Origin: Thermoanaerobaculia bacterium
Lineage (GTDB): Bacteria; Acidobacteriota; Thermoanaerobaculia; Multivoradales; DATKCC01
Length of the DNA stretch: 64,000 bases
Direction of reading: 5' to 3'
Assembly (NCBI GenBank): GCA_033762835.1
Contig: JANRLG010000305.1
Coordinates: 23,508 to 87,507, forward strand
This document shows, piece by piece, positions 9,541 to 48,075 of the stretch. How positions within the stretch are numbered: the first letter of the stretch is position 1; each line of letters begins with the position of its first letter. A program made the position numbers and the translations under genes. The notes below the pieces were generated by a model, which saw only the letters and a list, made by a program, of their open reading frames with translations, ran no database searches and was not told where the DNA came from.

Positions 9541-9544
9541 GGAA

Positions 9545-13971: not shown

Positions 13972-14055
13972 GGGCCCTTGGACTCGCCGTGCGGCGGGGT
14001 GCCCCCGCACGGTGTTACGCTGCCGGTCTGTCGTTTTCGAGAGAAAGGCAACACC

Positions 14056-14930: not shown

Positions 14931-15337
14931 GTCGGCGCCGGGGGGAGCGGGGGCAGGGCTTGCTGACGGCTTTGCTGGTGCTGCTGCTGGTCGCCATCGC
15001 CAGCGCGCTCCTCGCTACCGAGCTGCATCGCCAGCAACGCCAAGTCCGCCAGGAAGCCGGCGGCCTTGAGCTTCGCGCCCTCTCCGACGCCGCTCTCGCC
15101 GAAACCCTCGCCGAGCTGGCCGTGGACCGCAACTTCGCGGGGGTGGTAGAGCACGAGTTCGCCCGTGGGCGGATCGCCAGCACGGTCGAGACTCTCGCCA
15201 GCAACCGCTGGCTCGTCCGTGCCGAAAGTCGATTCGGCCTGCGGGTGCGTGTGGTCGAAGCCGAAGTGCGGCGCAGCGGCACGCAATTGCAGGTGGTCCG
15301 CTGGCGGCGGGTGAGCGCCGCGGAGGCGGAGGAATGA
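14924..15337 (+). CDS. pseudopilin-like protein (GspK/PilX-like N-terminal helix, no Glu5)
   Basis: Start overlaps the previous stop. 'GQGLLTALLVLLLVAIASALLATELHRQ' hydrophobic N-terminus. Confidence 0.4.
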   Translation: MVSRRRGERGQGLLTALLVLLLVAIASALLATELHRQQRQVRQEAGGLELRALSDAALAETLAELAVDRNFAGVVEHEFARGRIASTVETLASNRWLVRAESRFGLRVRVVEAEVRRSGTQLQVVRWRRVSAAEAEE

Positions 15338-15506
15338 GTACGGCGGAACATCGGGGCGCCTTGCGCTGGGCGTTGGGCCAGCGCCGATCTGGCACGAGGG
15401 CTCCCGGTGCACGGTTTTCGGCCAATCCTTCGCCAGCGTGTCTCCGGAGCCGTCACGAGCCGCTACCTGGCCCAGCCGGACCCTTCGGCTACAATAGCCG
15501 GCTCTT

Positions 15507-18500
15507 ATGACCGACCGCCGCTTTCCCGACGTTCCTTCCGGTTACCCCTTTCCCGCCCAGGAGCTCGCGACCCTCGAGTTCTGGCGGCGCGAGCGTGTTT
15601 TCGAGCGTTCGATGGCGAAACCCGCGCCGCGGGGCGAGTGGGTGTTGTTCGAGGGGCCGCCCACGGCCAACAACATTCCCCACGTCGGCCACGTGCCGTC
15701 GCGGGTGGCCAAGGACCTCTTCCCCCGCTTCCGTACGATGCAGGGCCACCACGTGGCGCGCAAGGCAGGTTGGGACACCCATGGTTTGCCGGTCGAGATC
15801 GAAGTGGAGAAGCGCCTCGGGTTCTCGGGCAAACAGCAGATCGAGGCGTTCGGCATCGCCGAGTTCAACCGCGCCTGCCTCGACAGCGTGTCGACCTACG
15901 AGCGGGAGTGGCGCGCCTTCACCGAGCGGCTCGGGTACTGGACGGATCTCGATCACGCCTACTTCACTTACACCAACGAATACATCGAGTCGGTGTGGTG
16001 GTCGCTCTCCGAGTTGTGGAAGAAGAACCTGCTCGCCAAGGGCTACAAGATCCAGCCCTACTGCGCCCGTTGCGGCACGACGTTGTCGTCCCACGAGGTC
16101 GCCCAGAACTACAAGGAAGCGGACGATCCGTCCGTGTGGGTGCTGTTCCCGGCGCGCGCCGGCCAGACTGTGCCTACCGTCGACGGTGAGCCCTGGACGG
16201 TGCCTGCGGGCCTCGAGCTCCTGGCCTGGACGACGACACCGTGGACGTTGCTCGCCCACGTCGGCCTGACGGTCCACCCGGAACTCGTGTACCGCGTCAT
16301 CGAGCACCCGGCCCAGCCCGGCACCACGATCCTCTTTGGTGACAGTCTCGCGGGTGCCGTGCCGCTCGAAATGGACGCCCCCGGGGGCAAACGCCAGCGC
16401 GTCGATCTCCGCGACCAACCGGTCTTGGCCCGCTTCCGCGGTCGCGATCTCGAAGGTCTCCGTTACGACCGCCCGTTCCACCCGCCGGTCGACGGCACCC
16501 CCAACGACGACACCGGCTTCGGCGTGGTGCTCGGCGACTACGTCACGGCCACCGACGGCTCGGGGCTCGTGCACACGGCGCCCCGTTTCGGCGAAGACGA
16601 TTACCAGACGGGCAAGAAGTACGGCCTGCCGCTCCTTGCGACCATCCAACCCGACGGCACGGTGGCGAACCTGCCGGGGCTCGAGGCTTTCGCGGGAATG
16701 TGGTTCAAGGACGCCGATCCCAAGATCCAGCGCGATTTGAAGGACCGCGGCCGGCTGCTGCACGGGGAACGCACCGTGCACAACTATCCGTTCTGCTGGC
16801 GTTGCGACCGTCCGCTGCTGTACTTCGCCACCGAGAGCTGGTTCGTGCGCGTGACCGCGGAGAAGGACCGCCTGATCCGGCTCAACCAGACGATCCACTG
16901 GCACCCCGAGCACGTCGGCGAGGGTCGCTTCGGCAACTGGCTCGAGAACGTGGTCGATTGGGCGCTCTCTCGGCGTCGGTACTGGGGTACGCCCTTGCCC
17001 GTGTGGTTGTGTACCGACTGCCCGGCGAGCTTCGTGCCCGGCTCCTACGCCGAGCTGTTCGCCGAAGCCGGCCGGCCGCTGCCGGAGAACCCTTACGATC
17101 CGGCCCAGTTCAACCCCCACCGGCCCGACGTCGATGCCCTCACTTGGAGCTGCAAGCATTGCGGCACGGGCCGGCTCGAGCGCGTGCCGGACGTCATCGA
17201 CGCCTGGTACGACTCGGGCGCCATGCCCTTCGCTCAGCACCACTACCCGTTCGACAATCGCGAGCTGTTCGCCCAGCAGTTCCCGGCGGATTTGGTCACC
17301 GAGGGCGTCGACCAGACTCGTGGCTGGTTCTACACGCTCCATGTGCTGGGCAGCCTGCTGTTCGACTCCGTGGCTTACAAACATTGCATCGTGCTCGGGC
17401 ACATCAACGACGAGCAGGGCCGCAAGATGTCGAAGCGGCTGGGCAACGTCGTGCAACCCATGGACGTGGTGGCGGAGACCGGGGCGGACGCCCTGCGCTT
17501 CTACCTTTGCGCCGCGAACCCGGAGCTGACCTCACGCTTCTCGGCGCGCCTGGTGCGCGAGAGTGCCCAGGGTTACCTCCTGCCGCTGTGGAACGCCCTG
17601 TCCTTCTTCACGATCTACGCGAACCTCGACGGCTGGCGCCCCGGCCAGGCCGCGGTGATCCCCTTCGAGCGCCGCCCGGCCCTCGACCGCTGGGTGTTGC
17701 TCGCCCTCGACCGCACGGCGGAGACGGTGACCGCGGCGCTCGAGGCGTTCTCCATCGTGGACGCCGCCCGCGGCCTCGAAGGCTTCCTGGACGGCTTGAC
17801 CAACTGGTACATCCGGCGCAGCCGGGGCCGCTTCTGGAGCGCCACGGGCGACGGGGGCGAGGACAAAGAAAGCGCCTACCAGACGCTGTACGAGGTGCTG
17901 ACGGCCTTCGCCCGGCTGACGGCGCCAATCACGCCGTTCGTGGCCGAAGAGCTGCACAGTCGCCTCGAGCGGAGCCAGGGCCGCGGTGCCGACAGCGTCC
18001 ACCTCGAAGACTGGTTCGCCGGGCTCGGTGCCGAACGGTCGGACCCGACGCTCGAGCGCGCCATGGCGGCGGTGCAACGGATCGTCCGGCTCGGTCACGC
18101 GGCGCGTAACGTTCACTCGTTGAAGACGCGCCAACCCCTGGCCGCGGTCACCTTGGTGACGGCAGACCGCGACTTGCCCGGGTTGATCGAGCCCTACGCC
18201 GACATCCTGCGCGAGGAGTTGAACGTCAAGGCGATCGCCTGGGCCGCCGATCGGGGCGAATACGTGACCTCCGAGGTCAAACCGATCTTCCCCAAACTCG
18301 GGCCCCGTTTCGGCAAACGCATGAAGGACTTGGCGGCGGCCCTCGCGGCGGCCGACGGCGATGGGCTGGCGGGGACTCTCGAGCGCGAGGGCGCGATCGA
18401 CGTCACCTTGGCCGATGGCGAAACCGTGCGCCTGGTCGCCGACGAGCTCGAAATCCGCCTGACCGAACGGGCCGGCACGGCCACCCAGGGGGATCGCGAG

Positions 18501-18809
18501 CTGCTGGTGGCGCTCGACACGACCTTGACTCCGGAACTCGTCGCCGAGGGCTTGGCGCGCGAGGTGGTCAACCGCCTCCAGACCGCCCGCAAGGACGCCG
18601 ATCTCGACTACGCCGACCGCATCCGCGTCGCCTACCGCGCCGACGGCGAGCTGACGGCGGTGATCGCGAGCCACCACGACTGGATCGCGGGTGAAACGCT
18701 GGCGCTCGAGCTGACGCCCGCCGCCGCCGGAACGGACCTGAAGCCGGCCGCGATCGAAGAACACGACTTCGCCTTTGCCCTGGAACGGGTTCGACCCCGG
18801 GAGACCTGA
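15507..18809 (+). CDS. ileS: isoleucine--tRNA ligase (type 2)
   Basis: 1100 aa. 'PTANNIPHVGH' (HIGH) and 'KMSKRLGN' (KMSKS) motifs. 'ALSRRRYWG' editing/CP1 region. Confidence 0.95.
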   Translation: MTDRRFPDVPSGYPFPAQELATLEFWRRERVFERSMAKPAPRGEWVLFEGPPTANNIPHVGHVPSRVAKDLFPRFRTMQGHHVARKAGWDTHGLPVEIEVEKRLGFSGKQQIEAFGIAEFNRACLDSVSTYEREWRAFTERLGYWTDLDHAYFTYTNEYIESVWWSLSELWKKNLLAKGYKIQPYCARCGTTLSSHEVAQNYKEADDPSVWVLFPARAGQTVPTVDGEPWTVPAGLELLAWTTTPWTLLAHVGLTVHPELVYRVIEHPAQPGTTILFGDSLAGAVPLEMDAPGGKRQRVDLRDQPVLARFRGRDLEGLRYDRPFHPPVDGTPNDDTGFGVVLGDYVTATDGSGLVHTAPRFGEDDYQTGKKYGLPLLATIQPDGTVANLPGLEAFAGMWFKDADPKIQRDLKDRGRLLHGERTVHNYPFCWRCDRPLLYFATESWFVRVTAEKDRLIRLNQTIHWHPEHVGEGRFGNWLENVVDWALSRRRYWGTPLPVWLCTDCPASFVPGSYAELFAEAGRPLPENPYDPAQFNPHRPDVDALTWSCKHCGTGRLERVPDVIDAWYDSGAMPFAQHHYPFDNRELFAQQFPADLVTEGVDQTRGWFYTLHVLGSLLFDSVAYKHCIVLGHINDEQGRKMSKRLGNVVQPMDVVAETGADALRFYLCAANPELTSRFSARLVRESAQGYLLPLWNALSFFTIYANLDGWRPGQAAVIPFERRPALDRWVLLALDRTAETVTAALEAFSIVDAARGLEGFLDGLTNWYIRRSRGRFWSATGDGGEDKESAYQTLYEVLTAFARLTAPITPFVAEELHSRLERSQGRGADSVHLEDWFAGLGAERSDPTLERAMAAVQRIVRLGHAARNVHSLKTRQPLAAVTLVTADRDLPGLIEPYADILREELNVKAIAWAADRGEYVTSEVKPIFPKLGPRFGKRMKDLAAALAAADGDGLAGTLEREGAIDVTLADGETVRLVADELEIRLTERAGTATQGDRELLVALDTTLTPELVAEGLAREVVNRLQTARKDADLDYADRIRVAYRADGELTAVIASHHDWIAGETLALELTPAAAGTDLKPAAIEEHDFAFALERVRPRET

Positions 18810-20173
18810 TGGCTGGAATCTTCAAAGCTTATGACGTCCGCGGCATCGTCCCGGACGAACTCGATACGCCGATCGCGTACAAAATCGGCCGCGCCTTCCG
18901 GGCCCTGCTCGACCCCGAGGACGACCACGACGGCGCTCCCGTCGTGGTGTCGAACGACATGCGGGCTTCGAGTGGACCGCTCAAGGCGGCCTTGATCGAG
19001 GGACTGCTCGACTCCGGCCTCGACGTCGTCGACATCGGCCTCCAAGCGACGCCGACCAACTACTTCGCCATTGGTCACCTGAAGACGGCGGGCGGCATCC
19101 AAGTCACCGCCAGCCACAACCCGGCGCGTTACAACGGCTTCAAGATGTCCCGGCGGGACGCCAAGCCGGTGTCTGGCGACCACGGCATCGGCCACCTGGA
19201 GAAGCTCGTGTTGGCGGGCGACTTCCCGCCGCCACCGGCCCAGCGGGGCACGCACACCGAGGCGGATGTTTCCGCGGCCTACGCCGAGCACGTGCTGGCC
19301 CACCTGCGCCGGCCGGAGGGGGCCAAGCGGCTCAAGGTGGTGGTCGACTGCGCGAACGGCATGGGCGCCGTCGATCGTCCGATCTTGGAACGCCTGGGCA
19401 TCGAGCTGATCCCGCTCTATTTCGAGCTCGACGGCACCTTCCCGAACCACGAGGCCAATCCGCTCAAACTCGAGAACCTGCGGGATTTGTCGAAGTTGGT
19501 GCTCGAGTCCGGCGCTGATTTGGGGATCGCCTTCGACGGCGATGCCGACCGCGCCGCGTTCGTAGACGAACGGGGCGAGCCGGTGGGCAGCGACCTGTCG
19601 ACGGCTCTCGTCGCCGGCGAGCTGCTCGAGCGTGAGCCGGGCAAGGTGGTGGTCTACGACCTGCGCTCGTCTCACGCCGTGGCCGAGCACATCACGGCCA
19701 AGGGCGGCATTCCGGTGCGCGAGCGGGTGGGCCACTCGTTCATCAAGGCGACGCTTCGGGAACGCGGCGGCGCTTTCGGCGGCGAGCTCGCCGGGCACTA
19801 CTACTTCCGCGACAATTTCTACGCCGATTGCGCGCTGCTGGCCGTGATCGAGATGCTGAACCTGCTGTGGAAAGAGGGCAAGCCGCTCTCCCAGTTGGTC
19901 GCCCCGCTACTCGCCAAGTACCGCAAGACCCCGGAGATCAACTTCGTGGTCGAAGACAAAGCCGGCAAGATCGCCGAGTTAGCCGCTCGCTACGCCGACG
20001 CCAAGATCGACTACCTGGACGGCATCACCTTCGAGTACCCGACGTGGTGGGCCAACGTCCGCCCCTCGAACACCGAGCCCTACCTGCGGTTGGTGCTCGA
20101 GGCCTCGAGCGACGAGGAGCTGGCGGCACGGGAACAGGAGCTGGTGGCGATCTTGGGCGAGCCGGCGGAGTGA
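18809..20173 (+). CDS. phosphomannomutase/phosphoglucomutase
   Basis: 454 aa. 'IFKAYDVRG' and active-site 'TASHNP'. Start overlaps the ileS stop by 1 nt. Confidence 0.85.
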   Translation: MAGIFKAYDVRGIVPDELDTPIAYKIGRAFRALLDPEDDHDGAPVVVSNDMRASSGPLKAALIEGLLDSGLDVVDIGLQATPTNYFAIGHLKTAGGIQVTASHNPARYNGFKMSRRDAKPVSGDHGIGHLEKLVLAGDFPPPPAQRGTHTEADVSAAYAEHVLAHLRRPEGAKRLKVVVDCANGMGAVDRPILERLGIELIPLYFELDGTFPNHEANPLKLENLRDLSKLVLESGADLGIAFDGDADRAAFVDERGEPVGSDLSTALVAGELLEREPGKVVVYDLRSSHAVAEHITAKGGIPVRERVGHSFIKATLRERGGAFGGELAGHYYFRDNFYADCALLAVIEMLNLLWKEGKPLSQLVAPLLAKYRKTPEINFVVEDKAGKIAELAARYADAKIDYLDGITFEYPTWWANVRPSNTEPYLRLVLEASSDEELAAREQELVAILGEPAE

Positions 20174-37668: not shown

Positions 37669-38532
37669 ATGTCGACCCATACCGCCACCGTAGGCCCCGC
37701 CGACCATTTCGAGTATCTCCGCCACCGTGTGCGGTTCGATCCGGCGGCGGCGCCCCGGCTGTTGGCCGAGCTTCTTCGGGAGGACCGTGCCGTGGAAATG
37801 CCCCGCGACCCGCAGGTTTGGACGGCCCTCGTCGAACACGGTGATTCGAACACTCTGGCCCGCGCCGTTCTCTCCGGCCTCCAGCCGGGGCAGATGCAGG
37901 TGTTGAGTCTCGATGCCGGCTTGCGCTTCGACTGCCTCGACGCCCTGGAGCGGCACGCCTGGGCCCTGGTGGCCGAGGATCGGGCGCCCGTCCTGCCACC
38001 GGATGGTTATCCGGCCCTGTTGGCGGAGAAAGTCTTCGAGCCTCTGGGGATGTTCGCCGAGGCGGCGGCCCTCTATGCCCTTGGCCATGACGATCGCGAC
38101 GCCTCCGGCAAACCCCTCGATCGCCTCACCCGGGCCGTGATGTGTTACCGCTTGGCGCGCAGTCTCGGCCGCCTGGCCCAAGACGAACCGGAATGGCGGT
38201 CCTGTGCTCTCGAGCTCATGGCGAGCGCCTGCCACGCCTGTGAACCCAAGTCGCCGGAACGGCTCGGCAGTGACCCGACGGGCCTACGGCTTCGCTTGCA
38301 TGGTTATCAGTGGCTGGGCGCCCGCTGGGCCGCCGATGGTCGCGAGGCCGAGGCGCGCCAGGCTTTCGAACGGGCGATCCGCGCGGCCCTGGAGCTCGGG
38401 GAAGGGGAGTTGGCAGTGGCTCTCGAGGCCTTCAGCCGTTACTCGTTGGGTCCGGCGAACGATGGAGTTCCAGTTCCCACTCTACCGTCGCCCAATCGGC
38501 GGCCGTCGAGCGGATCACGTTCGTCGCGCTGA
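37669..38532 (+). CDS. hypothetical alpha-helical protein
   Basis: Long ORF with coding-like composition. Its 3' end overlaps the convergent caspase gene. Confidence 0.3.
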   Translation: MSTHTATVGPADHFEYLRHRVRFDPAAAPRLLAELLREDRAVEMPRDPQVWTALVEHGDSNTLARAVLSGLQPGQMQVLSLDAGLRFDCLDALERHAWALVAEDRAPVLPPDGYPALLAEKVFEPLGMFAEAAALYALGHDDRDASGKPLDRLTRAVMCYRLARSLGRLAQDEPEWRSCALELMASACHACEPKSPERLGSDPTGLRLRLHGYQWLGARWAADGREAEARQAFERAIRAALELGEGELAVALEAFSRYSLGPANDGVPVPTLPSPNRRPSSGSRSSR

Positions 38533-40417
38533 CCCGGCCGCGGAGCCAGGCCGCGAGGAACTCGTCGAGCGGGGAGCGGAACACCGTCGGCGGCACGGGC
38601 GGCGCGGCCGGCGCCGTCAAAGCTGGTAGCTCCAACCACTCGAAACTCGCTGGGCGCTCGGAGGCGATAACTTTCAGCACCGCCCGGCCGCGTTCGGCGC
38701 CGGCCGGCAGCTCGCCCACGGCGAGCAGCACGGGGGTGCTCTCCCCGGGGCCCAAGCTCGACCACGGGCCGAGGGGCCACAGCTGCTCGATGCTCCAGTC
38801 GGCACCGAGCGACAGGAGTGTCACGTACAGCACACGGTCGCTGTGATTGGCCGCGGCCAAGGTGAAGCTCCGGCCCGCCGGGAAATGGCCGGGCTCGGTG
38901 ACGATCCGGCGGTCGATGGCGAGCGTGACGGCGTCCCGCAGTTGGCTCGCCGAGTCGCGGTTGCGCAGGGTTCTCACGCCCTCGAAGCGCGCCCAGTGGG
39001 CGAGGCGCCGAACGAGTTCGGAGGCGGCGTTCGGTGCGTTCGAATCGAGGGGCGGACCGAGCGCGAGGATCTCGCCCAGAGTGGTGGTGACGGCAAACCG
39101 GCCATCCGCGCCGACCTCGATCCGAAGATCCGCGACTTCGTCCGCCGCCGCCGCCCGCAAGAAGGATTCGCGCTCCGGACTCGGCGCGGTCAGCAGGACC
39201 GCCAACTCGGTCAGCTCGGCGGCCGCTCCGACCAACCGTGCCCGTCGGAGCAAGCGCCACGGCGCGGGAGACAGCAGACCCAAGAGCTCGCCGGGCTCGA
39301 TCCGCACGGGAGGACCGTCGCCGACCGCGTGAACGACGCTGCTGTGATCGTCGACCGACTGGGCTTCGAAAACGGTGGTCGCGAACGCACCCAGGGGAAA
39401 GCGGAAGAGGGCGCCCGGGGCGAGGCCTTGCAGAGCCCCGGCGGCCAGTCGGAGCCCGCCATCTTCCCTAGTTTCGAGCACGGCCACACCCCGCGGCGCG
39501 GCGACCGGCTCCCGACCCAGGAAAACCCGATCGAGAACTCCCTCCGCTTGCGGCGTTTGGCGCGAGCCGGCCAGGAGCAAAGCGGACTGGGTGCGCCGGA
39601 GCAACTCGCGGTAGGTCGCCCCGCCCGGCCCGGCGCGCCGCAGAGCCGACAGCAACGAAGCCGTGAACAAGCCGCCCACGCTGCCGTCTTCGAGCGGGGC
39701 TTCGAGGGCCAACTCGTGGGCGGCACAGGCCGCCAGGAGGGTGTGGCGCGAGCCCGCGAGCCAGGGATGGCAGGCGGCGTCGCCCCAGCCAGCGGCGCGA
39801 CGGGCGGCGAAGGCCCGCAGTGTGGCGAGATCGGCGACCGCCGACGGGAGTTCGTCGCAGGCGCGGCGCAGGCAGTGCGCGCCGCGCACGCGGACCCGGG
39901 GCTCGGCGCGAAGAGCACCGCCGGCGAAGCAGGCATCGAGGATGACCACGGTATCGATCTCGCGGGCGGCGAGCTCCGCGAGTAGATAGGCCAACTCGAG
40001 ATCGTGGAGGAGCCGGCCTTCGGCAGCGGCGGCATCGTAGGGCACTAGGCACTCGTCGAGACCGGGGCGGCGCTCCGGGAGCAGGCTCGGCACCCGCACG
40101 CCGTGACCCGAGAAGTAGAACAGGACGATGTCGCCCGGCTCGGCGCGGGTGGCCATCCGCCGCCAAGCGCCGACGATTTGGGCATAACCTGGGCGATCCG
40201 CGGGGGCCTCGCGGGGTTCGGCGGTGAGTCCGCGGGAGGCGGTCAGCAGGCACAGGTCCTCGGGTGGCAGTCCGAGGTCGCGCTCTAGGTAAGCGTGAAA
40301 CTTGCGCGCATCGCGCACGCCGCCGTCGAGGCCTTCGAAATCGAACTCGCGTCCAATCGGGCTGTCGGCGTAGCGGTCGATGCCGACCACCAGAGCGTGG
40401 GCTCGCGGCCGGCTCAT
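38432..40417 (-). CDS. caspase-domain (peptidase C14) protein with ~430-aa C-terminal extension
   Basis: Caspase core runs 'ALVVGIDRYADSP' to 'IVLFYFSGHGV' (His) to 'VVILDACFAGG' (Cys). Start ATGA-coupled to the upstream gene. Confidence 0.75.
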   Translation of the reverse strand: MSRPRAHALVVGIDRYADSPIGREFDFEGLDGGVRDARKFHAYLERDLGLPPEDLCLLTASRGLTAEPREAPADRPGYAQIVGAWRRMATRAEPGDIVLFYFSGHGVRVPSLLPERRPGLDECLVPYDAAAAEGRLLHDLELAYLLAELAAREIDTVVILDACFAGGALRAEPRVRVRGAHCLRRACDELPSAVADLATLRAFAARRAAGWGDAACHPWLAGSRHTLLAACAAHELALEAPLEDGSVGGLFTASLLSALRRAGPGGATYRELLRRTQSALLLAGSRQTPQAEGVLDRVFLGREPVAAPRGVAVLETREDGGLRLAAGALQGLAPGALFRFPLGAFATTVFEAQSVDDHSSVVHAVGDGPPVRIEPGELLGLLSPAPWRLLRRARLVGAAAELTELAVLLTAPSPERESFLRAAAADEVADLRIEVGADGRFAVTTTLGEILALGPPLDSNAPNAASELVRRLAHWARFEGVRTLRNRDSASQLRDAVTLAIDRRIVTEPGHFPAGRSFTLAAANHSDRVLYVTLLSLGADWSIEQLWPLGPWSSLGPGESTPVLLAVGELPAGAERGRAVLKVIASERPASFEWLELPALTAPAAPPVPPTVFRSPLDEFLAAWLRGRVSATNVIRSTAADWATVEWELELHRSPDPTSNG

Positions 40418-41748
40418 GGCCGTCGAGGCACCGCCAGGCGCACCGCCGGGTCCCCGATCAGGACGTAGGAGCGCGCGTCTCGCGCGGCGATCCACAGGAT
40501 GCCCAGCCAACGGGGGTCGACGTCGCCTCGCTCCCCTTCGAGCGCTTCGTGCAGCTCGTGCAGGATGTCGCCGTAGCGCGCGCCGAAGCCATGCAGTGCG
40601 TCCCCCACGCGGCGTCCCTCGAGCAGGCCCCGCAGGGCCTCGCGGTAAACCTCGCGGCCGCCGTCGAGCCGATAGGAGTAGGGCCAGGCGAGGTCGACGT
40701 GGCCGATGAAGGCGAGTGCCCCGCCCCGGGGGTGGGTGAGCAGGCGCCGCGGCAGTGCCGAGACGAACGCCGAGGGCGCGAGCGGCGCGGGTTCCGCGCG
40801 ACCGAGGGCGGGGGCGAAGCCTTCGACGGCGGGCGTGCCCGCGGTGCAGCAGCCGAAGGCGAACACGATCAGACCGGCGACGTCGAGCTCGTCGTCGATG
40901 TCTTCAGCCGCGAGGAAGTGGCCACCGCTCATGCCCGTCCCAGGCCAGTCGGCGCAAACCACCGCGCCCTGCCCGGCGGCTTGACGCTCGTCGGCAGCAG
41001 GAAAGGCCAAGCCGTGGCTGGCGAGAAAAACCAGCGCCGGCGCCTCGGACCCGCCGAGCAGCGACCGGATCCGGTCCTTGGTAGCGCCTGCGCCGATCTC
41101 GGCGATCAGCGACCAATCCGGCTCGTCGGTCAAAGCCTCGGCCAGGGGCGCCAGCAACTCGTCGGCCGACAACTCGGTCGCCCGGTCGCCGGCAAAACGC
41201 GGCCCCGCCAGCGCCCACGAGCGCTGCCGCCGACGCCGACCGCTTTCCGCCGCCACGACGCCGCGGGCATAACGCTCGTAGTCGTCGGGCGTAGCGAAGT
41301 CCAGGCGCCCCACCGAGCGCGCCTGGTCGAAGGCGTACTGGCGCTCCCAGGGCAAACCCTCCGGTTCCCCCACGAGCAGCAAATAGTCGGGGTCCGTGAC
41401 CTCGTCCCGAGCCGCCCCGAGCGGTACCAATCCGAGACCCTTGCGCGTAGCGGCCTCCGGCACCAGTTCGAACTCTCCCACCCGCTCCCCGAACCGCTGT
41501 CGGCGCCAAGCGATCAACGGCTCCAGCGCCTCCCGCAGCTCCAAAGCCCCCGGCCCGAAAGCCACCCCCCAGCGCTCATACCCCGGCGCCCGCGACCGCG
41601 CCTTCGAGCCTCCAAACTGCATCCGCTCCCGCCCCGCGAGCAAAGCCCGACCCACCGCCGCCGGTTCCGCAGCGCCCCGGAACGGCTCGCCCCGCAAACC
41701 ATCGAGGCCGTTCCAGATGTGGGTGTCGTCGGGGTGGGGGGCGGGCAT
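40414..41748 (-). CDS. putative clan-CD (caspase/CHAT-like) cysteine peptidase homologue
   Basis: 'ALVFLASHGL' and 'LIVFAFGCCTAG' form a candidate His/Cys dyad in caspase-like order. The N-terminal 250 aa are unassigned. Confidence 0.45.
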   Translation of the reverse strand: MPAPHPDDTHIWNGLDGLRGEPFRGAAEPAAVGRALLAGRERMQFGGSKARSRAPGYERWGVAFGPGALELREALEPLIAWRRQRFGERVGEFELVPEAATRKGLGLVPLGAARDEVTDPDYLLLVGEPEGLPWERQYAFDQARSVGRLDFATPDDYERYARGVVAAESGRRRRQRSWALAGPRFAGDRATELSADELLAPLAEALTDEPDWSLIAEIGAGATKDRIRSLLGGSEAPALVFLASHGLAFPAADERQAAGQGAVVCADWPGTGMSGGHFLAAEDIDDELDVAGLIVFAFGCCTAGTPAVEGFAPALGRAEPAPLAPSAFVSALPRRLLTHPRGGALAFIGHVDLAWPYSYRLDGGREVYREALRGLLEGRRVGDALHGFGARYGDILHELHEALEGERGDVDPRWLGILWIAARDARSYVLIGDPAVRLAVPRRP

Positions 41749-41966
41749 CAGGCGCCTTTCGACTTGCCGCGAGCACTCCGAGTTGTCGGCCGAGGCTTAT
41801 TGCGCTTCGGTGCAGCTTTCGCCTTGGGCGTAGCGGGAGCTTGGAAGCTGTTGGTCGGGGGGTCGGGGGGGACTGGATCCCCTCCAGGCTTTGTCCCCTG
41901 GGCGGGCGTCGGAGAAGGGGGATTGTCCTCCGGACGGAAGACTTCTGCTTTGTGTTCATCGTGCAT
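41748..41966 (-). CDS. small Pro/Lys-rich basic ORF coupled to the clan-CD gene
   Basis: 72 aa. Stop overlaps the next ATG by 1 nt (TGATG). The composition is not decisive. Confidence 0.2.
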   Translation of the reverse strand: MHDEHKAEVFRPEDNPPSPTPAQGTKPGGDPVPPDPPTNSFQAPATPKAKAAPKRNKPRPTTRSARGKSKGA

Positions 41967-42054
41967 GGTTCTTGGTCTCCTAAGCGGGTATCAAGTGCCC
42001 CAGGAGGAGCTGCCGTCGCCCGCTAGGTGCAATACCCGAACTCTTTCCAGAGGT

Positions 42055-44937
42055 TTAGTTCCCTGGCGCTCCGAAAATTTGAAAGGCTGCCCAAAGAGCT
42101 GGATGATGTCGGCCGACGCGGCTTCTCTGATTTAGCTGAGCCCTGCGAAGTGCCAAGTGTGGGTCGAGCCCACTCCCGAGCGCGTCGTAAAAGTCCTCCA
42201 TCAGTTCGGAGGTGGCCTGGTTGTCGATCGGCCACAGGCTCGCAAGAACTTGTTTGGCTCCAGCCCCCAGGATTGCATTTGTTAGGCCGTACAGACCCTC
42301 ACCGCGAACGTCGCCAACTCCTGACTCGCATGCAGCGAGTGTCACGAGGCTTGCCGAAAGTTCAAGCTCCCTGATTTCGAATGCATAGACGCTCTTACCG
42401 AGTCCTGAGCCGTCAAAGATCAAAGCGGAGGAGTCGGGCCAACTGGAATCTGCTGACCCGTGGGAAGCGATGTGCAATTGGCAGAAGGGCTTGAGGCCCG
42501 GGCCGAGAACATCAGTTCGGGTAGCTCTGATCAAGGTAATGTCTGAGCTGTACGCTCTCAGAGCTCGGCCGTCATCAGAGAAGTCGCTGCTCCCTTCCGA
42601 GGTAGTGATCAATCCAACACCCGAGCAGTTACGTTGGCGGCGTCGAATCTCCAAGACGCTTGCCAGGGACGGGGCGATGGAGAGTCCGAATCGATCCACG
42701 AGTTGCGCTTCGGGCGTCTCAGGATCTGCAACGACGGCAAACGGAACGCGATGAAGGGCTCCATCGGGACTGATCTGTAGCCTCTGGGCCCAGATCTTTG
42801 GGGTAAGGGGTGCCCAAACCAGTTTCGAGAACGCTGAAGCCGCGGTTCGAAAGTGCCCTTCTCTATCGGAAGATCGCGATTCTGCGGCGGCAATGGCAAG
42901 GTCGAGAGCAACACGCTCGATCTCAGCGCCTGGCGGCAACGAGACCAGATCGAAGTGATTCCGGTCGATAATCCAGGCGAGGCTTCGTTCCCTTCCGAGA
43001 AAGAAGGAGATGAATTGCTCATCTGGCCTGAGCTGCGCCTTGAGTTCGTTTAGACTGAGCCTTGCTGACGACGACGGGAACGAAGGCTTCTTGGCAGGTC
43101 TTCTGCGGAGGGCAGCACTGAGTTGAATTTCGGCTCTCTGTCTAGAGAATAGAGCTCTCAGCTCGCGCCAACCCGGCGGCATGCGTCGCGTTAGGTCCGC
43201 AATCTTCTGGTCGAGTTGGGCCAGCTCCGGCCGGAGCCCCAGAGAATAGAGACTGCTCTCCTCTTGCCGGTAGGGGGCCCGCTGGAGTCTTTCCCTCAAG
43301 GCCGGAGCCCGTGAGCCGTCAACAATCATGAAAGCCTGCTCGGCATAGTGTTGATCCCCTTGACGATCAGCTGCGGACAGAAGCAAATTGACTGCGGCTT
43401 CGAGGTGTTGAGATCGGGTAGACCAGAATGAGACCCTGAGGGCTTCAGAGTCAGGATCCTGACGCTGTTGTTCCATTTCGCTCAGCGACAATTGGAGTCT
43501 ATCCACGGCCTCGCGCAAATGGCCTTCTTCGTAGAAGATTTTCGCCTCGACTCGATGCACGAATGCACGGGTGCTGGCATCGGCAAGTAACGGGAATTCC
43601 AGGGCTTTCGATAGTGCATCACGGGCCGATTGCAGTCGGCCACGTTCTATTTCCGAAAGAGCCAGGAAGGCCCAAGATGCAGCGTGTTCTGGACCTCTAG
43701 GACGGAGCTCGGAAGACTTTCGGAATAACTCAGAGGCGCTGGCGTAGTTCCCCGCATCAAAGTTGGCCCAGCCGCCAGCGTATGCGATCTCCGCCTGGAC
43801 GGCCAAGGGCAGCGTTGTCGGCACTATCTCTGCGATGGTCTGAATAGCCTCAGAGGGTTTTTCGAGTCCAATCTGTATGAGGGCATATGCCACCAAGGCT
43901 CTCGCCTTCGTGTCCGGTGTCTCAGCCAGCTTGTACTGACGCTTCGTTACGCGGAGTGCCTCCTCAAGACGGCCCAAGCGTCGCAGGGCTCGACTAAGAT
44001 CCCGCAGTGCCTCAGAAAGTTCTCTGCGATTTTCTGCGACCGAGAGAACTCCCGTTTGGAATCGCAGGAAATCGACTGCGGTTTCCAGCCGCCCGATGCG
44101 CATTGCTTCGAAAGCCATGCAGGCGGCTCGGCGGGCCGCCGCATGTGGAAGTTGCGACGAAAGGCGCGCAAGGACGACCTCGCTGAAGTAATCGAATTCG
44201 GATACGTCTCCCTCGGCAATGAGGTGTCTTACTATTTCGCATCCAGCTTCGCCGATTAGCTCGATCTCTTCTATCTGAAGAAGGGGTTTCCAGATTGAGC
44301 GGTAGAGGGCGTAGCTCTGTTCGCTGTCCCCCTGCTCTTTGAGCACGAAAGCTAGATGCCGCTGGGCCACTACGGCCCAGCGCGGTTCAGCGAGGCCAGC
44401 CCAAAGTGCGACGGCACGCCGGTGGTGCTCCTCGGCCTGGGCGTAGAGCGGTTCAGGCTGCTGCTCCTCAAGACGAATACCCTCGAACAGTTCCCTCGAG
44501 GCTTGCGTTCGACGAACGTCATAGGCAGAAGGCGATCTAGGTCCATCTACTGATGCCCGGAAGCGGCCATCGAACTCCTCCCACGCATACACCTCCACCC
44601 GCAGCACCTCGGCCTTTTCCGCAATCCAAGACATCGTCTCGGCGCCGTGCGTTCCGGTGTACGAATTCCCATGAAACAGCAGCTTCCCCCGCGAGTCGTA
44701 CAGGCGGATCCCGGCGTCGATGTCGTCGTTCTGCTCGACGTCGATACGGAGGTATTCCCCGGCTTTCATGGGGAAGAAGTAGTTGCGGCTCTCACCGATG
44801 CCCAGGGTGCGCTCGTCGAGGGGGCGCAGGGGGGCCGGGCCGGTGGGCGCGGCGTGGGCGGCCCTGGCGAGGGCCAGGGGGAGGAGGAGGGCCAGGAGGG
44901 CCGCCCCGGCGAGGTTACGGCGCGCGGTCGGTGGCAA
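42055..44937 (-). CDS. secreted TPR-repeat protein with C-terminal CHAT protease domain
   Basis: Proposed TTG start gives signal peptide 'PPTARRNLAGAALLALLLPLALARAAHA'. TPR-like helical repeats follow. CHAT block 'LHIASHG ... LVTLAACESG ... VLASLWPIDN'. The body is lower-GC than its flanks. Confidence 0.75.
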   Translation of the reverse strand: MPPTARRNLAGAALLALLLPLALARAAHAAPTGPAPLRPLDERTLGIGESRNYFFPMKAGEYLRIDVEQNDDIDAGIRLYDSRGKLLFHGNSYTGTHGAETMSWIAEKAEVLRVEVYAWEEFDGRFRASVDGPRSPSAYDVRRTQASRELFEGIRLEEQQPEPLYAQAEEHHRRAVALWAGLAEPRWAVVAQRHLAFVLKEQGDSEQSYALYRSIWKPLLQIEEIELIGEAGCEIVRHLIAEGDVSEFDYFSEVVLARLSSQLPHAAARRAACMAFEAMRIGRLETAVDFLRFQTGVLSVAENRRELSEALRDLSRALRRLGRLEEALRVTKRQYKLAETPDTKARALVAYALIQIGLEKPSEAIQTIAEIVPTTLPLAVQAEIAYAGGWANFDAGNYASASELFRKSSELRPRGPEHAASWAFLALSEIERGRLQSARDALSKALEFPLLADASTRAFVHRVEAKIFYEEGHLREAVDRLQLSLSEMEQQRQDPDSEALRVSFWSTRSQHLEAAVNLLLSAADRQGDQHYAEQAFMIVDGSRAPALRERLQRAPYRQEESSLYSLGLRPELAQLDQKIADLTRRMPPGWRELRALFSRQRAEIQLSAALRRRPAKKPSFPSSSARLSLNELKAQLRPDEQFISFFLGRERSLAWIIDRNHFDLVSLPPGAEIERVALDLAIAAAESRSSDREGHFRTAASAFSKLVWAPLTPKIWAQRLQISPDGALHRVPFAVVADPETPEAQLVDRFGLSIAPSLASVLEIRRRQRNCSGVGLITTSEGSSDFSDDGRALRAYSSDITLIRATRTDVLGPGLKPFCQLHIASHGSADSSWPDSSALIFDGSGLGKSVYAFEIRELELSASLVTLAACESGVGDVRGEGLYGLTNAILGAGAKQVLASLWPIDNQATSELMEDFYDALGSGLDPHLALRRAQLNQRSRVGRHHPALWAAFQIFGAPGN

Positions 44938-47188
44938 GGAGTTCGACGGGGTGGTAGGCGACGAGCCGGGGTTGGTCCGTGGCCAGGTCGTTGAGCTCGA
45001 GCCGATAGTTGCCGGGCGAAAGTCCCCAGAATTGGGCGCAGAGGGCCTCACCGCAGGGCTTGGCCGAGGTGGTGGCGACGACGGCATCGGTCATCGAGTC
45101 GAGCAACGCAGCTTGCGGCTCGGCGATTTCACCGAGCGTCCGGGCGTCGATCCGGAAAAGCGCCTTGTGGGGCCACCGGCCGAGCTCGAGGGTCGTGACG
45201 TCGTCGTCGCCGCGGAGCGTGCTCACGGGGACGATGTACGTTTCCGGCACCGGTGCCGTCGCGAACATCACCCCGCCCAAGCCGGCCGCGAGCCCCGCGG
45301 AGGCGGCCAGCCACTTCCAGGCGTGGCGCTTCGGTGCTGGGGCTGTGGTCGCGGTGGGGAACTGGAGGACGGGTGAGACTGGCATCACCTCGGCGTCTTT
45401 GCCCTCGGCTTCGATCGCGGCTTGAAGCCGGATCCGATCCGCCGCTTGCCAGGAAGCGAGCTCCTCGGGGGAAACCACGTCCGCGGTGGGACTTGAGAAG
45501 GCCTGCCAGTCGAGCACGGACTCGGCGAGCTCCGGGTTCTTCGCGAGCTGATCCTGGTACTTCTCGGCCTCGGCCTCGCTCAGCACCCCCGCGAAGTACA
45601 AAGCCGACCGCTCGTCGGTCGAGTCGGCCGTCTTCCCCGGAGGGGTGGGAAACCGATTCACGTTGTCCATGGTCCGAGGCCCGGCAGTAGCGCCCTTCAG
45701 ATCATGATCAAGCTTCTCCGCTTTGGCAAGCGGACCACCGCCAGCCGCGCCCGCACCGACCCGCCGAAACGCCCCCGGCCTCGAGATCTCCTCCTGGACC
45801 TGCCGGACGATCGCCTGCGTCAGCTCCCGCCGCTCTGCGGCCTCGCGGAGGATGGCCCAGGAAGCGAGAGTTTCCCGACCCACACCGAGGGCCTCGAAGG
45901 TCTTTCCCATGGAGATGGCTAGAGATAGGACCTGGTCAGTGCGGTTCTTCTCTAGAAGAAGTAGCGTTAGGTCCAGCGTAACAAGAGCAGCATTAAAAAT
46001 GTGGCCTCTCTCAATGTATATTTCTTGAGCGCGGTCCAGGCAGTCTTCTGGACCTCCTATCCGTTCGTCACCGGCCAGCGCTAGTCCCAAGACCCAAAGC
46101 CTACCGGGTTCCCAGAAGGGCCTTTTCAGATACTCGGGCTTTAGCTTCTCGAGAAGTTCTTGCGCTTCACTGGGTCGTCCGTACTTAGCTAGCAGGACCG
46201 CCCGGCAGTGCCAAGCATGCAGCAGAAGGTCGCTATCCGCCGCTTCTTGCGCTAGGCAAGCTGCATCTACCACTGTGCGGAGGCCTCGCTTCAAGTCGCC
46301 GGATACTTCATGGATCATAGTCGCCGAGAGTTTCGCCGAGATGGCTTCGCGCAACCGGTGCAGGTGGTCGTAGAGGATATGCGAGATATTAGAGTATGTT
46401 AAGGCGTCACGAAAATTTCTGAGATCCCTGGCGATGGAGGCGCTGAAGCTCGTGGCTTCTGCCCAAAAGACGGGATTCCGGACCGCGTGATGGGAAGCCG
46501 TTTGGATTGCCTCTTCGATTATCTTTTTCGCCTGATGCAGGTCTCCGAAGCACCGCATTGAGTTGCCTCTGAAGAGATCCGCCCGGACCTGAAAAGCTAA
46601 GTCGGTCGTAGAGCCAGTAGCCGCCCAGCGAGACACTACTTCTGCCCACGAGCCCGAAGCTCGTGGGCCTTCTGGCAACGCCGCCCGTGCCTCCACCAAG
46701 CAAGCGCTCGCCACCGCCTCCCCTGCAAATGCCTCCGGCTCGCGCTTCACCAGCTCCAACCGCTCCGTCGCCGACAGCGGCCTCAACCGCTCGATCGCCC
46801 TTCTGGCTCGCTCTTGTTCTTCGGCGCTGAAAGTGGGCGCGGGTGGTGGCGGGACTCGGCCGAGGTCTTCGACCGGAATGCCGATCAGGCGGGCGGCCTC
46901 TTCGCGGGCTTCGCGCTCCTCGCTGATCCCAACGTCGAGGCGGGCTTTGTCTTCGCTTTGCCAGAGGGTGAGGGTGGCGGTCGGTAGAGAGTCGGCGGAA
47001 GGGGGCGCGAAACACTGCCAGTCGAGCAGGGTCTCGGCGAGGTCGGGATCGTGGGCCAGGTCGTCTTGGAGGGTCTCGACATCCTCGGGACACAGCCGGC
47101 CGCCGAAATAGGCTGCCGCGCGTTCGCCGGCGGCGAGATTCGGTGGACTTTCTCCGGGGCGCCTCGGCAGCCCGTGGGTCGCGTTCAT
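44915..47188 (-). CDS. anti-sigma-factor-like protein with duplicated N-terminal module, TPR-like insert, TM segment and periplasmic C-terminal domain
   Basis: N-terminal 'ERAAAYFGGRLCPEDVETLQDDLAHDPDLAETLLDWQCF' recurs at ~aa 520 as 'ERSALYFAGVLSEAEAEKYQDQLAKNPELAESVLDWQAF'. A TM helix 'WKWLAASAGLAAGLGGVMFATAP' follows. Lies 28 nt downstream of the ECF sigma gene. The middle is lower-GC. Confidence 0.5.
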   Translation of the reverse strand: MNATHGLPRRPGESPPNLAAGERAAAYFGGRLCPEDVETLQDDLAHDPDLAETLLDWQCFAPPSADSLPTATLTLWQSEDKARLDVGISEEREAREEAARLIGIPVEDLGRVPPPPAPTFSAEEQERARRAIERLRPLSATERLELVKREPEAFAGEAVASACLVEARAALPEGPRASGSWAEVVSRWAATGSTTDLAFQVRADLFRGNSMRCFGDLHQAKKIIEEAIQTASHHAVRNPVFWAEATSFSASIARDLRNFRDALTYSNISHILYDHLHRLREAISAKLSATMIHEVSGDLKRGLRTVVDAACLAQEAADSDLLLHAWHCRAVLLAKYGRPSEAQELLEKLKPEYLKRPFWEPGRLWVLGLALAGDERIGGPEDCLDRAQEIYIERGHIFNAALVTLDLTLLLLEKNRTDQVLSLAISMGKTFEALGVGRETLASWAILREAAERRELTQAIVRQVQEEISRPGAFRRVGAGAAGGGPLAKAEKLDHDLKGATAGPRTMDNVNRFPTPPGKTADSTDERSALYFAGVLSEAEAEKYQDQLAKNPELAESVLDWQAFSSPTADVVSPEELASWQAADRIRLQAAIEAEGKDAEVMPVSPVLQFPTATTAPAPKRHAWKWLAASAGLAAGLGGVMFATAPVPETYIVPVSTLRGDDDVTTLELGRWPHKALFRIDARTLGEIAEPQAALLDSMTDAVVATTSAKPCGEALCAQFWGLSPGNYRLELNDLATDQPRLVAYHPVELLATDRAP

Positions 47189-47216
47189 GGTCGGTCCTCC
47201 AACAAAACAAACGACA

Positions 47217-47774
47217 TCAGGAAGCGACGGCGCGGCCGGGAAGATCGGTCGAGAGGGCTTCCTTGAGCTTCAACTTGGCCTGGAACAGCTGCGACTTGAC
47301 GGTTTCGATGGAGGTCAACATCAGCGTCGCGATCTCTTCGTACTTGAAGCCTTCCAAGTAGAGCAGGACACAACGCCGCATGCGCGGCGGCAACTGCTCG
47401 ATCGCGACGCGTACTTGTTGCTCGCGTTCACCGGCCAGGAACTCGTCCAGGGCGTCGGGCTCCTCGGTGGCGAGTCCTTCGGCAAGCGGTTCGTCCTGCA
47501 CCTCGGGGTTCTCGATCGACACGAACGTCCCGCGCGGGCGGTTCTTTTTCGCCATGCCGTCCCTGAGGTGGTTCAGGAACAGGTTGCGGGTAATCGTGAA
47601 GATCCAAGGTGCCAGGGATTCCACCGTGCCTCCGTCCGTCGTCTTCCAGTTCTTCCAAACCCGGAGGAACACGGTTTGGGTGAGGTCACGCGCGAGATCT
47701 CTTTCCACCCCCTTGTGGAGGTAGAAACCGAGGACCCGCGGGTAGAAGTGCTGGTAGGTGGCTTCGTAGTCCAT
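47217..47774 (-). CDS. ECF (sigma-24-type) RNA polymerase sigma factor
   Basis: 185 aa from 'MDYEATYQHFYPRVLGFY'. Region 2 'TQTVFLRVWKN' and region 4 'YEEIATLMLTSIETVKSQLFQAKLKL'. Confidence 0.85.
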   Translation of the reverse strand: MDYEATYQHFYPRVLGFYLHKGVERDLARDLTQTVFLRVWKNWKTTDGGTVESLAPWIFTITRNLFLNHLRDGMAKKNRPRGTFVSIENPEVQDEPLAEGLATEEPDALDEFLAGEREQQVRVAIEQLPPRMRRCVLLYLEGFKYEEIATLMLTSIETVKSQLFQAKLKLKEALSTDLPGRAVAS

Positions 47775-48075
47775 CGGCGCGCCCGTCGCGGGGGGACGCG
47801 GAAACGCCCGCTCCTTCGAACCGGGGCTGGCGGGCAGTGCGAAGGCGCGACGGCGGGGCGATGGTACCCGATTCGACGCCCGCGTCCTAGCTTCGGTGTC
47901 CCTCTCGTCCTCGGGAAAAATGCGGCGAACGCAGATTCTCGTCCCGGTTTTGCCCGGCCGACTCACGAAGTTAGCAAGTGGTATCGCTGTGAGCACAGCC
48001 GAGCGGCAAAGGAGCCGCTCGGTCCTTCGAGTGACCTAGTGCCTCGTGCGCGGGGCACGGACCGTGGATGGAGCT

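Follow-up and report, generated by a model that had tools for sequence, protein, structure and literature searches.

Coupling of clan-CD proteases to extracytoplasmic function (ECF) sigma factors is an already established theme, and several described systems can be set beside the locus reported here, a string of six tightly spaced genes on the minus strand (38432-47774) of a 64-kb stretch of DNA, hereafter the window (GC 0.68), taken from the metagenome-assembled genome of an uncultured soil or groundwater acidobacterium of the Thermoanaerobaculia. In M. xanthus, the anti-sigma factor DdvA carries a periplasmic TPR-CHAT part, and self-cleavage of DdvA was proposed as the site-1 step before RseP; such fused forms were found by the authors of that study only in Myxococcota and one Comamonas (PMC11506125). 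In the type III-E Craspase (Cas7-11/Csx29/Csx30/Csx31/CASP-sigma), the TPR-CHAT protein Csx29 cleaves the sigma inhibitor Csx30 (PMC10028731). In a type III-B CRISPR system of Haliangium ochraceum, SAVED-CHAT cleaves and activates PCaspase, and the cluster also encodes the sigma factor PCc-sigma and a small inhibitor, PCi (bioRxiv 10.1101/2023.06.23.546230). In addition, EACC2-caspase systems coupled to an ECF sigma factor as well as to a TPR protein were described computationally by Kaur et al. (PMC7159879, PMC8195603).

An ECF sigma factor, a membrane anti-sigma factor, a secreted TPR-CHAT protease and two cytoplasmic clan-CD peptidases had been predicted for the string, and this gene content was borne out, with intact His-Cys dyads in all three proteases. 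By analogy, the first three genes are a split counterpart of DdvS-DdvA (PMC11506125, PMC6061681). In both cases an ECF sigma gene adjoins the gene of an anti-sigma factor with an N-terminal anti-sigma domain (ASD), single-pass in DdvA and probably so in the window, a large periplasmic TPR-CHAT region with a His-Cys dyad is present, and the proposed logic is CHAT-assisted site-1 cleavage followed by intramembrane proteolysis. When the window CHAT domain was compared with PDB sequences, DdvA (8rot_B) was the only significant match (E 8.4e-6). However, the fusion seen in DdvA is absent here. TPR-CHAT is encoded by a gene of its own, is secreted and has a PPC-like N-terminal domain in addition, and the periplasmic part of the anti-sigma factor is only ~112 amino acids (aa) long. 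The ASD of this factor is without zinc ligands and is present twice, the two copies being separated by a TPR-like insert. Furthermore, the neighbours are two cytoplasmic clan-CD proteases and not a CRISPR island or one of the cyclic oligonucleotide-based antiphage signalling system (CBASS), and the host belongs to the Acidobacteriota.

Like the SAVED-CHAT/PCaspase cluster, the string combines a sigma factor and a small protein with a CHAT protease and a C14 caspase; experiments on that cluster have proved activation of one clan-CD protease by another and inhibition by a small protein encoded alongside. SAVED-CHAT, however, is cytoplasmic, is activated by cyclic tri-adenylate (cA3) via SAVED and cleaves the caspase directly, whereas the window CHAT protein is extracytoplasmic and cannot reach cytoplasmic proteases; the string has no SAVED, CRISPR or kinase component and has an additional gingipain-type protease. 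With Craspase it shares the linkage of a TPR-CHAT protein to an ECF-type sigma factor and its inhibitor, inhibitor cleavage being what controls transcription in Craspase. Unlike the window protein, Csx29 is cytoplasmic and RNA-activated; the NCBIfam Csx29 model (NF041237, cutoff 300) gives the window TPR-CHAT 29.3 bits, and neither Cas7-11 nor csx30 or csx31 was found in the window. The RseA/DegS/RseP-sigmaE pathway (PMC10028731) is similar in that release of an ECF sigma factor begins with a site-1 protease that is periplasmic, activated by a signal and distinct from the anti-sigma factor. There this enzyme is a PDZ serine protease; its putative counterpart in the string is a cysteine protease of clan CD that carries TPR and PPC domains. 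No site-2 protease gene lies in the window, and an M50 gene lies beside the homologous locus L075. STAND conflict systems are related through two of the components: the family of the gingipain-type protease usually adjoins CHAT-nSTAND1-WD40 proteins, and the C-terminal region of the caspase recurs in proteins with nSTAND1, patatin, Trypco1 and TPR-S. Yet no NTPase occurs in or near the cluster, and no EAD-type homotypic adaptor common to the N-terminus of the gingipain-type protease and a STAND partner was detected. Family scans found no NTPase, SAVED, CARF, CRISPR or EACC component in the cluster, and cas, CBASS and STAND families had no match among the scanned open reading frames (ORFs) of the window. 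Descriptions of a gingipain-type member or of a secreted TPR-CHAT protein were not found in the papers of Kaur et al. (PMC7159879, PMC8195603). Thus, with its extracytoplasmic CHAT protease, its gingipain-type protease and no NTPase, SAVED, CRISPR or EACC component, the window arrangement matches none of the compared systems.

Gene content of the string

The first gene (47217-47774) encodes a protein of 185 aa that consists of sigma2 and sigma4 domains only, as in ECF (group 4) sigma factors, with Pfam matches to Sigma70_r2 (6.5e-13) and Sigma70_r4_2 (7e-16) and 81.6 bits for the NCBIfam model TIGR02937 (sigma70-ECF, cutoff 42.9). None of the NCBIfam subfamily or equivalog models scored above its cutoff. 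Sigma factors of the homologous loci L023, L078 and L082 are 31-37% identical to it. Membership in ECF54, a group with CHAT proteins in its genomic context, was considered and is unlikely, because this group is actinobacterial and reportedly has no anti-sigma factor.

After a gap of 28 nucleotides (nt) follows the gene of the 757-aa anti-sigma-like protein (44915-47188). Its designation as anti-sigma-like is supported by ASD homology and by its position behind the sigma gene, but no Pfam anti-sigma (zf-HC2) match was obtained, and the domain is present as two zinc-less copies. The predicted order is a cytoplasmic ASD1 with a TPR-like solenoid, ASD2, one transmembrane (TM) helix and a small periplasmic domain. 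Residues 1-91 (ASD1, 46916-47188) are 40% identical to residues 508-598 (ASD2, 45395-45667; E 2e-19), and even the initiator Met is aligned, with a Met at the start of the second copy. The plain 262-aa anti-sigma factor of L023 has a zf-HC2 region that is recognised by Pfam, and each of the two copies can be aligned to it (E 3e-4 for copy 1 and 0.002 for copy 2). The HxxxCxxC zinc motif is not retained; the positions read DDLAHDPDLAE and DQLAKNPELAE, and the Cys ligands are gone. The TPR-like alpha-solenoid inserted between the copies (residues 123-471, 45776-46822) gives weak Pfam matches to TPR_14 and TPR_MalT and is 37% identical (E 3e-57) to stand-alone proteins of ~460 aa (P0096-P0103), which have no adjacent sigma genes. 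A candidate TM helix was read from the sequence at residues 624-645 (WKWLAASAGLAAGLGGVMFATA, 45254-45319), and the small periplasmic domain (~112 aa, 44918-45253) has a PGNYRLEL motif at its end. Since the duplicated ASD flanks the TPR-like insert and is followed by the TM helix and the periplasmic domain, the protein resembles a soluble ASD-TPR protein fused to a classical ASD-TM-periplasmic anti-sigma factor. The possibility that it represents two genes or a frameshift artefact was rejected, because a single ORF of 759-763 aa is kept in three or four relatives.

If read from a TTG start, the TPR-CHAT gene (42055-44937) overlaps the anti-sigma gene by 23 nt and encodes 960 aa, and the same overlap was called by an independent gene caller in the relative L170. 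The product begins with a canonical signal peptide (44851-44937), which reads MPPTARRNLAGAALLALLLPLALARAAHA followed by AP when translated from the TTG at 44937 and has a hydropathy of 2.02. A PPC-like beta domain, TPRs (TPR_12, 2.7e-11) and a CHAT domain (~42070-42840; Pfam CHAT 1.3e-46, 159.8 bits against a cutoff of 24) follow in this order. The dyad residues H826, in the motif HIASHG (42457-42474), and C870, in the motif LAACESG (42319-42339), are invariant in eight homologues. All of those homologues have a signal or lipobox N-terminus, and several are of the lipoprotein type.

The gap behind the TPR-CHAT gene is 88 nt and not 90 nt as first counted, while the other spacings, namely the 28-nt gap, the 23-nt overlap and the TGATG and ATGA couplings, are as originally described. 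A small ORF of 72 aa (41748-41966) comes next; its stop codon overlaps the start codon of the gingipain-type gene (40414-41748) as TGATG, and this gene in turn overlaps the caspase gene (38432-40417), the last of the string, as ATGA. The small ORF has an AGGAG Shine-Dalgarno sequence 8-9 nt upstream, and its proline-rich, basic product is probably disordered. In L170, L001 and L005 the reading frame and a pattern of NPPSP, PPxxPP and a basic tail are kept despite indels. Together with the Shine-Dalgarno sequence and the coupling, this frame conservation suggests that the small ORF is probably a real gene. Family scans gave neither a family match for the 72-aa protein nor similarity to CI-2-type inhibitors. 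The slot itself is variable, as an unrelated, conserved lipoprotein of 124-146 aa replaces the 72-aa protein in L023, L078, L092 and L167.

The product of the gene at 40414-41748 (444 aa), which had been proposed to be a clan-CD protein, does match Pfam Peptidase_C25 (1e-7; score 32 bits, cutoff 23). Its structure predicted from 48 homologues (predicted local distance difference test score 90.1, predicted template modelling score 0.93) has the catalytic fold of C25, and H245 (41014-41016) and C300 (40849-40851) form its dyad in the order His...Cys. H245 is invariant in the family, and G246 and C300 occur in at least 90% of the sequences. Identity to the gingipains RgpB and Kgp of Porphyromonas gingivalis (MEROPS C25) is only 14-16%, and a profile search of PDB sequences gave nothing significant. 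Unlike the gingipains, the protein consists of the catalytic fold and a short N-terminal segment, without a signal peptide, N-terminal prodomain, Ig-like domain or C-terminal domain for the type IX secretion system. Judging from the predicted fold, it is a cytoplasmic gingipain-type clan-CD peptidase, and we refer to it as C25-like.

The last gene encodes a protein of 661 aa with a metacaspase-type C14 domain (39539-40402; Pfam Peptidase_C14 1.8e-18), which has the caspase-hemoglobinase fold and the dyad H105 and C163. The original description of a caspase with an uncharacterised tail was right about the C14 domain and overestimated the tail, which is ~350-365 aa and not 430 aa long. This C-terminal region (38435-39487) combines a small beta-barrel with an Ig/MG-like beta-sandwich. 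It is carried by 437 representative proteins at E <= 0.001, and elsewhere it is fused to C14, CHAT, patatin, Trypco1, nSTAND1 and TPR-S. The model for EACC1-associated caspases (NF047832) gave 41 bits against a cutoff of 140, and no EACC1-like gene was identified in the string. No signal peptide was found in the C25-like and C14 proteins, while TPR-CHAT has one, in agreement with the predicted placement of one protease in the periplasm and two in the cytoplasm.

Recurrence and linkage of the modules

Conservation of the neighbourhood had been proposed as a check, and gene order proved to be kept both in close relatives and in distant loci of other Acidobacteriota with unrelated flanks. The six-gene string is found with the same flanks in the relatives L001-L004, L170 and, in part, L005, at 54-74% identity. 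These relatives are too closely related to prove functional linkage, and distant loci with unrelated flanks are therefore decisive for linkage beyond chance. One of them, L023, lies in a complete Thermoanaerobaculaceae chromosome, has unrelated flanks and is 26-40% identical to the window. Its order is sigma factor, zf-HC2/TM anti-sigma factor, secreted TPR-CHAT, 146-aa lipoprotein, C25-like peptidase and a C14 caspase with the window-type C-terminal region. L078 and L092 have the order of L023 with a cytoplasmic CHAT protein of 706-734 aa as the last gene, and L167 follows the same order up to the C25-like gene, where the contig ends. We also considered whether the CHAT proteins in the last position of L078 and L092 carry the C-terminal region of the caspase, and rejected this, as the region is not shared. 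In L082 and L085 the sigma, anti-sigma, TPR-CHAT and C25-like genes occur in other orders, and in L075 the TPR-CHAT gene is accompanied by genes for a 157-aa Pro-rich protein, a C25-like peptidase and a C14 caspase.

Genes for the sigma factor, the anti-sigma factor, TPR-CHAT, the C25-like peptidase and a third clan-CD protease are found together in the window, L001, L170, L023, L078 and L092, the third slot being filled by C14 in some loci and by cytoplasmic CHAT in others. Nine loci with both TPR-CHAT and C25-like genes had enough flanking sequence to be judged, and a sigma factor and/or an anti-sigma factor of the family was present in all of them but L075. According to a crude neighbour-joining tree, the C25-like proteins linked to sigma, anti-sigma and TPR-CHAT genes do not form one clade; they fall into four or five basal groups.

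To what extent the first three genes occur alone was seen from a metagenome scan with an alignment of five secreted TPR-CHAT sequences, which gave 80 full-length loci. An iterated sigma profile placed an ECF sigma gene beside the CHAT gene in ~19 of the 80. Flanks of 2 kb or more on each side were available for 25 loci, and in nine of these a sigma gene lay within 2.5 kb of the TPR-CHAT gene, usually immediately adjacent. The sigma genes of those nine mostly adjoin a gene for a single-pass zf-HC2 anti-sigma factor, before or after it, so that two gene orders are seen. A profile of the TPR-CHAT-linked anti-sigma factors matches L023, L078, L082, L008 and L085 including the periplasmic domain (domain E from 3e-4 in L085 to 3e-13), and by this similarity the periplasmic domain of such anti-sigma factors is a conserved family. 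Sigma factor, anti-sigma factor and secreted TPR-CHAT thus make up a recurrent, mostly stand-alone triad, which is common in soil Acidobacteriota-type contigs of metagenomes.

The C25-like family is large. One scan of 600 stretches confirmed at least 567, with hosts among Cyanobacteria, Chloroflexota, Acidobacteriota, Planctomycetota and others. Most of the C25-like genes adjoin a gene for a giant protein with CHAT, nSTAND1 and WD40 or for another CHAT/STAND protein related to it, and a single-linkage cluster of such partners was found at 54 of 81 C25-like loci. When the nearest partners were sampled (n=32), CHAT was present in 19, nSTAND1 in 18 and WD40 in 14. Because CHAT/STAND proteins are the partners elsewhere and C14 or CHAT fills the third slot here, the conserved unit seems to be a C25-like peptidase together with a second clan-CD protease, joined to the sigma triad here and in a few acidobacterial lineages. 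The string is therefore better seen as two joined modules than as a novel three-protease invention, since the triad often occurs alone and C25-like peptidases elsewhere have CHAT/nSTAND1 partners.

Three arrangements around related genes may be recorded here. At L082 (4083-9561, minus strand), a CHAT-SIR2 fusion and an nSTAND1-WD40 protein adjoin the C25-like gene on the opposite strand and the sigma triad lies on its other side, so that both kinds of partner meet at one C25-like gene. At L094 (2176-5304, plus strand), a single ORF of 1042 aa encodes a complete ECF sigma factor (r2 plus r4_2) together with TPR repeats and a Ser/Thr kinase, and is followed by genes for a zf-HC2 protein and a secreted TPR-CHAT protein; Ser/Thr kinases flank TPR-CHAT in ~11 other metagenome loci. 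At L075, a Peptidase_M50 gene (site-2 protease family) with CBS domains (4856-6016, minus strand) lies directly upstream of the TPR-CHAT, C25-like and caspase genes and on the opposite strand to them.

A proposed output model and its alternatives

The original prediction suggested a proteolytic relay across the membrane. A direct relay from protease to protease is topologically impossible, because one protease is outside and two are inside; the link must consist of anti-sigma cleavage and sigma release, which is also the proposal for DdvA (PMC11506125). Starting from the observed gene content, folds, intact dyads, topology and conserved linkage, we infer who cleaves whom, what the sigma factor transcribes, and what the biological trigger and outcome could be. 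Our preferred reading, which we put forward tentatively, is that the periplasmic CHAT protease controls proteolysis of the anti-sigma factor and that the released sigma factor drives the two cytoplasmic proteases. The sigma factor, the single-pass anti-sigma factor and the secreted PPC-TPR-CHAT protein would form an envelope-facing switch, in which the ASD modules hold the sigma factor at the membrane at rest. CHAT would be activated by a signal in the periplasm, probably by a protein to which the TPR/PPC part binds, and would then clip the small periplasmic domain of the anti-sigma factor or otherwise remove its steric block. Intramembrane proteolysis and cytoplasmic degradation could then free the sigma factor. 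The second module, composed of the 72-aa protein, the C25-like peptidase and the C14 caspase with its binding domains, would be the cytoplasmic output, as the freed sigma factor would raise transcription of its own operon, both cytoplasmic proteases included. One of these probably activates the other, as SAVED-CHAT does with PCaspase, and the coupled 72-aa protein is a candidate for an inhibitor or for the substrate that is cut first. Broad proteolysis may result and end in growth arrest or death, a response of the conflict or abortive-infection type.

This model is favoured because the triad recurs alone, because the two modules are linked in distant loci, and because the spacing in the string is tight or overlapping, as in operons. 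It has precedents in the cleavage of Csx30 by Csx29 and in the activation of PCaspase by SAVED-CHAT. A functional interaction between the anti-sigma factor and the secreted CHAT protein is also supported by DdvA, in which both are fused (a Rosetta-stone argument). If the model is true, protease and anti-sigma factor are genetically separable and the role of CHAT as site-1 protease becomes directly testable; DdvA-type logic would then not be confined to Myxococcota. An undescribed cytoplasmic gingipain-like family would also be placed within prokaryotic caspase/CHAT conflict systems, and the string also suggests that one and the same protease pair can be set off either by a transcriptional (sigma) or by an NTPase (STAND) trigger.

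Several results weigh against this reading. The role of the DdvA CHAT part as a site-1 protease is itself a hypothesis in the source paper (PMC11506125). No sigma gene was nearby in 16 of the 25 well-flanked secreted TPR-CHAT loci, and none, nor an anti-sigma gene, was found at L075. The TM stretch of the window anti-sigma factor is Ala/Gly-rich and hydrophobic, with a hand-calculated Kyte-Doolittle mean of ~1.58 for the best 19-mer against a threshold of 1.6 (1.85-2.04 in the L023 and L078 homologues), and the protein matches the profile of TPR-CHAT-linked anti-sigma factors weakly, collinearly in its C-terminal half (whole-protein E 0.0026). For promoters, neither alignments of the regions upstream of the sigma gene and between TPR-CHAT and the small ORF (window, L170, L001 and L005) nor an exact bipartite-motif search across three sigma subgroups gave an element shared between the sigma-upstream regions and the gaps between CHAT and C25-like genes. 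This latter gap, 88 nt in the window, is 300-370 nt in L023, L078, L092 and L167, long enough to contain a separate promoter. GC content at third codon positions (GC3) is heterogeneous inside the string. It is lower in the TPR-CHAT gene (0.63), the small ORF (0.62) and the N-terminal half of the anti-sigma gene (0.68), and reaches 0.82-0.85 in the sigma, C25-like and caspase genes and the C-terminal half of the anti-sigma gene (gyrB, 0.88); the contrast hints at a different origin or different constraints of the TPR-rich parts. The string lies in a housekeeping neighbourhood and not in a defence island, with gyrB on one side and genes for an RRM protein, an amidase and MreB on the other. A PADLOC scan of the string gave no system model, only a generic caspase match and a weak match of the sigma factor to a CARF model.

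We consider it unlikely that the direction is reversed, that is, that the C25-like or C14 protease, on a cytoplasmic cue, cuts the cytoplasmic ASD1-TPR-ASD2 part of the anti-sigma factor and so frees the sigma factor, with the secreted TPR-CHAT as a second periplasmic input or as an output. The 500-aa cytoplasmic extension of ASD and TPR that was gained by the anti-sigma factors of the window clade would suit such a mechanism, TPR domains being typical protease-docking modules. Cytoplasmic proteases cleave sigma inhibitors in Craspase and CalpL-type systems, and activated PCaspase cleaves its associated sigma factor. However, the extension is not needed for the linkage, because the plain anti-sigma factors of L023, L078, L092 and L167 (~250 aa, with a short cytoplasmic part) keep the same proteases linked. 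Moreover, the C25-like family is widespread without sigma factors, and the family scans of the cluster gave no NTPase, SAVED or CARF protein that could sense a cytoplasmic cue.

It also appears doubtful that the modules are two independent neighbours, an envelope-stress triad with its own regulon and a separately controlled protease pair, kept side by side by co-transfer and not by a shared pathway. That the triad is common without C25-like or caspase genes, and C25-like genes without the triad, would be expected if this were so, and the same is true of the GC3 contrast (0.62-0.68 for TPR-CHAT, small ORF and anti-sigma N-terminal half, 0.82-0.85 for sigma, C25-like and caspase), the sizeable gaps before the protease pair and the varying gene order in L082 and L085. 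Mere adjacency does not easily account for the occurrence of both modules on one strand in about ten loci that have different flanks and whose C25-like proteins belong to four or five branches of the family tree, nor for the sigma and/or anti-sigma genes at all well-flanked loci with TPR-CHAT and C25-like genes other than L075.

A more specific form of the output model, which we regard as improbable as it stands, is a bacterial counterpart of extrinsic apoptosis. Here TPR-CHAT would be a receptor-protease that senses a foreign periplasmic protein of a phage, predator or competitor and cuts a domain of the anti-sigma factor dedicated to this purpose, and the sigma factor would license a gingipain-type and metacaspase-type initiator/executioner pair restrained by the co-translated, disordered 72-aa protein as a securin- or PCi-like inhibitor, while CHAT-nSTAND1-WD40 sensors would trigger the same pair elsewhere. 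If this were true, sigma switch and STAND NTPase would be interchangeable triggers of one death module. Another view is that the string has no suicide or anti-phage function and that its regulated proteolysis serves development, cell-cell behaviour, nutrient stress or upkeep of the envelope, comparable to HetF-type CHAT proteases and housekeeping metacaspases. This agrees with the location of the string, which in every close relative is the same housekeeping region with gyrB, RRM protein, amidase and mreB genes in synteny, with the lack of a PADLOC system model beyond the generic caspase and with the stress responses that ECF sigma factors mostly serve (PMC7826278). It is hardly likely, however, given that the domains found around these families (nSTAND1, WD40, SIR2, patatin, Trypco1, TPR-S and EACC-type caspases) are typical of predicted conflict systems (PMC7159879, PMC8195603) and that DdvA, Craspase and SAVED-CHAT/PCaspase, which among characterised systems are the nearest to the string, all have links to defence.

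Surroundings of the string and minor observations

No terminator-like hairpins or sites were found in the gaps of the string, and consensus scans for terminators and promoters gave counts equal to the shuffled expectation, so that these scans had no power. An Rfam scan matched no RNA family. Between the sigma gene and the divergent RRM gene, which starts at 48075 on the plus strand, a block of ~150 nt (47925-48075) is near-invariant in the window, L170 and L001. It contains a 55-nt stretch, ACCACTTGCTAACTTCGTGAGTCG.CCGG.CAAAACCGGGACGAGAATCTGCG, and is likewise without an Rfam match, while the remaining part of the intergenic region diverges. The block is probably the promoter or 5′ untranslated region of the RRM gene rather than the sigma promoter.

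At the other end of the string, an ORF for a helical protein of 287 aa without a family match (37669-38532, plus strand) converges on the caspase gene, with a 3′ overlap of ~100 nt. The same convergent overlap is present in L001 (291 aa) and L170 (287 aa), and is absent at the distant locus L023.

Among the stand-alone paralogues of the TPR-like insert, P0099 (L086, 6001-7422) and P0100 (L088, 6001-7392), both ~460 aa and from the genome of a relative, have an extremely conserved C-terminal stretch, LDWSLFLLDQNRPEEVLPLAVSMGQAFEALGVARETLASWAIF. Each of them follows an ORF of ~97 aa and lies near XRE-type helix-turn-helix and pterin-4a-like genes, with no adjacent sigma gene. The upstream ORFs (97-98 aa) were considered as possible ASD-like proteins and rejected, since they have no resemblance to ASDs.

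Many C25-like homologues of Nostocales and Chloroflexota have a C-terminal extension of ~200 aa and are followed by a conserved protein of ~266 aa without a family match (24 loci). In Nostocales (L010, L012, L013, L014, L024, L029 and others; ~6000-19000), a conserved block is formed by genes for a ferrochelatase-like protein, an unrelated protein of ~460 aa, the C25-like peptidase, the CHAT-nSTAND1-WD40 giant and a lipoxygenase. At L041 in Nostoc (520-9736), a secreted TPR-CHAT gene lies upstream of the C25-like gene and is preceded by genes for two large signal-peptide proteins of 596 and 1358 aa, an arrangement that presumably resembles a two-partner-secretion operon.

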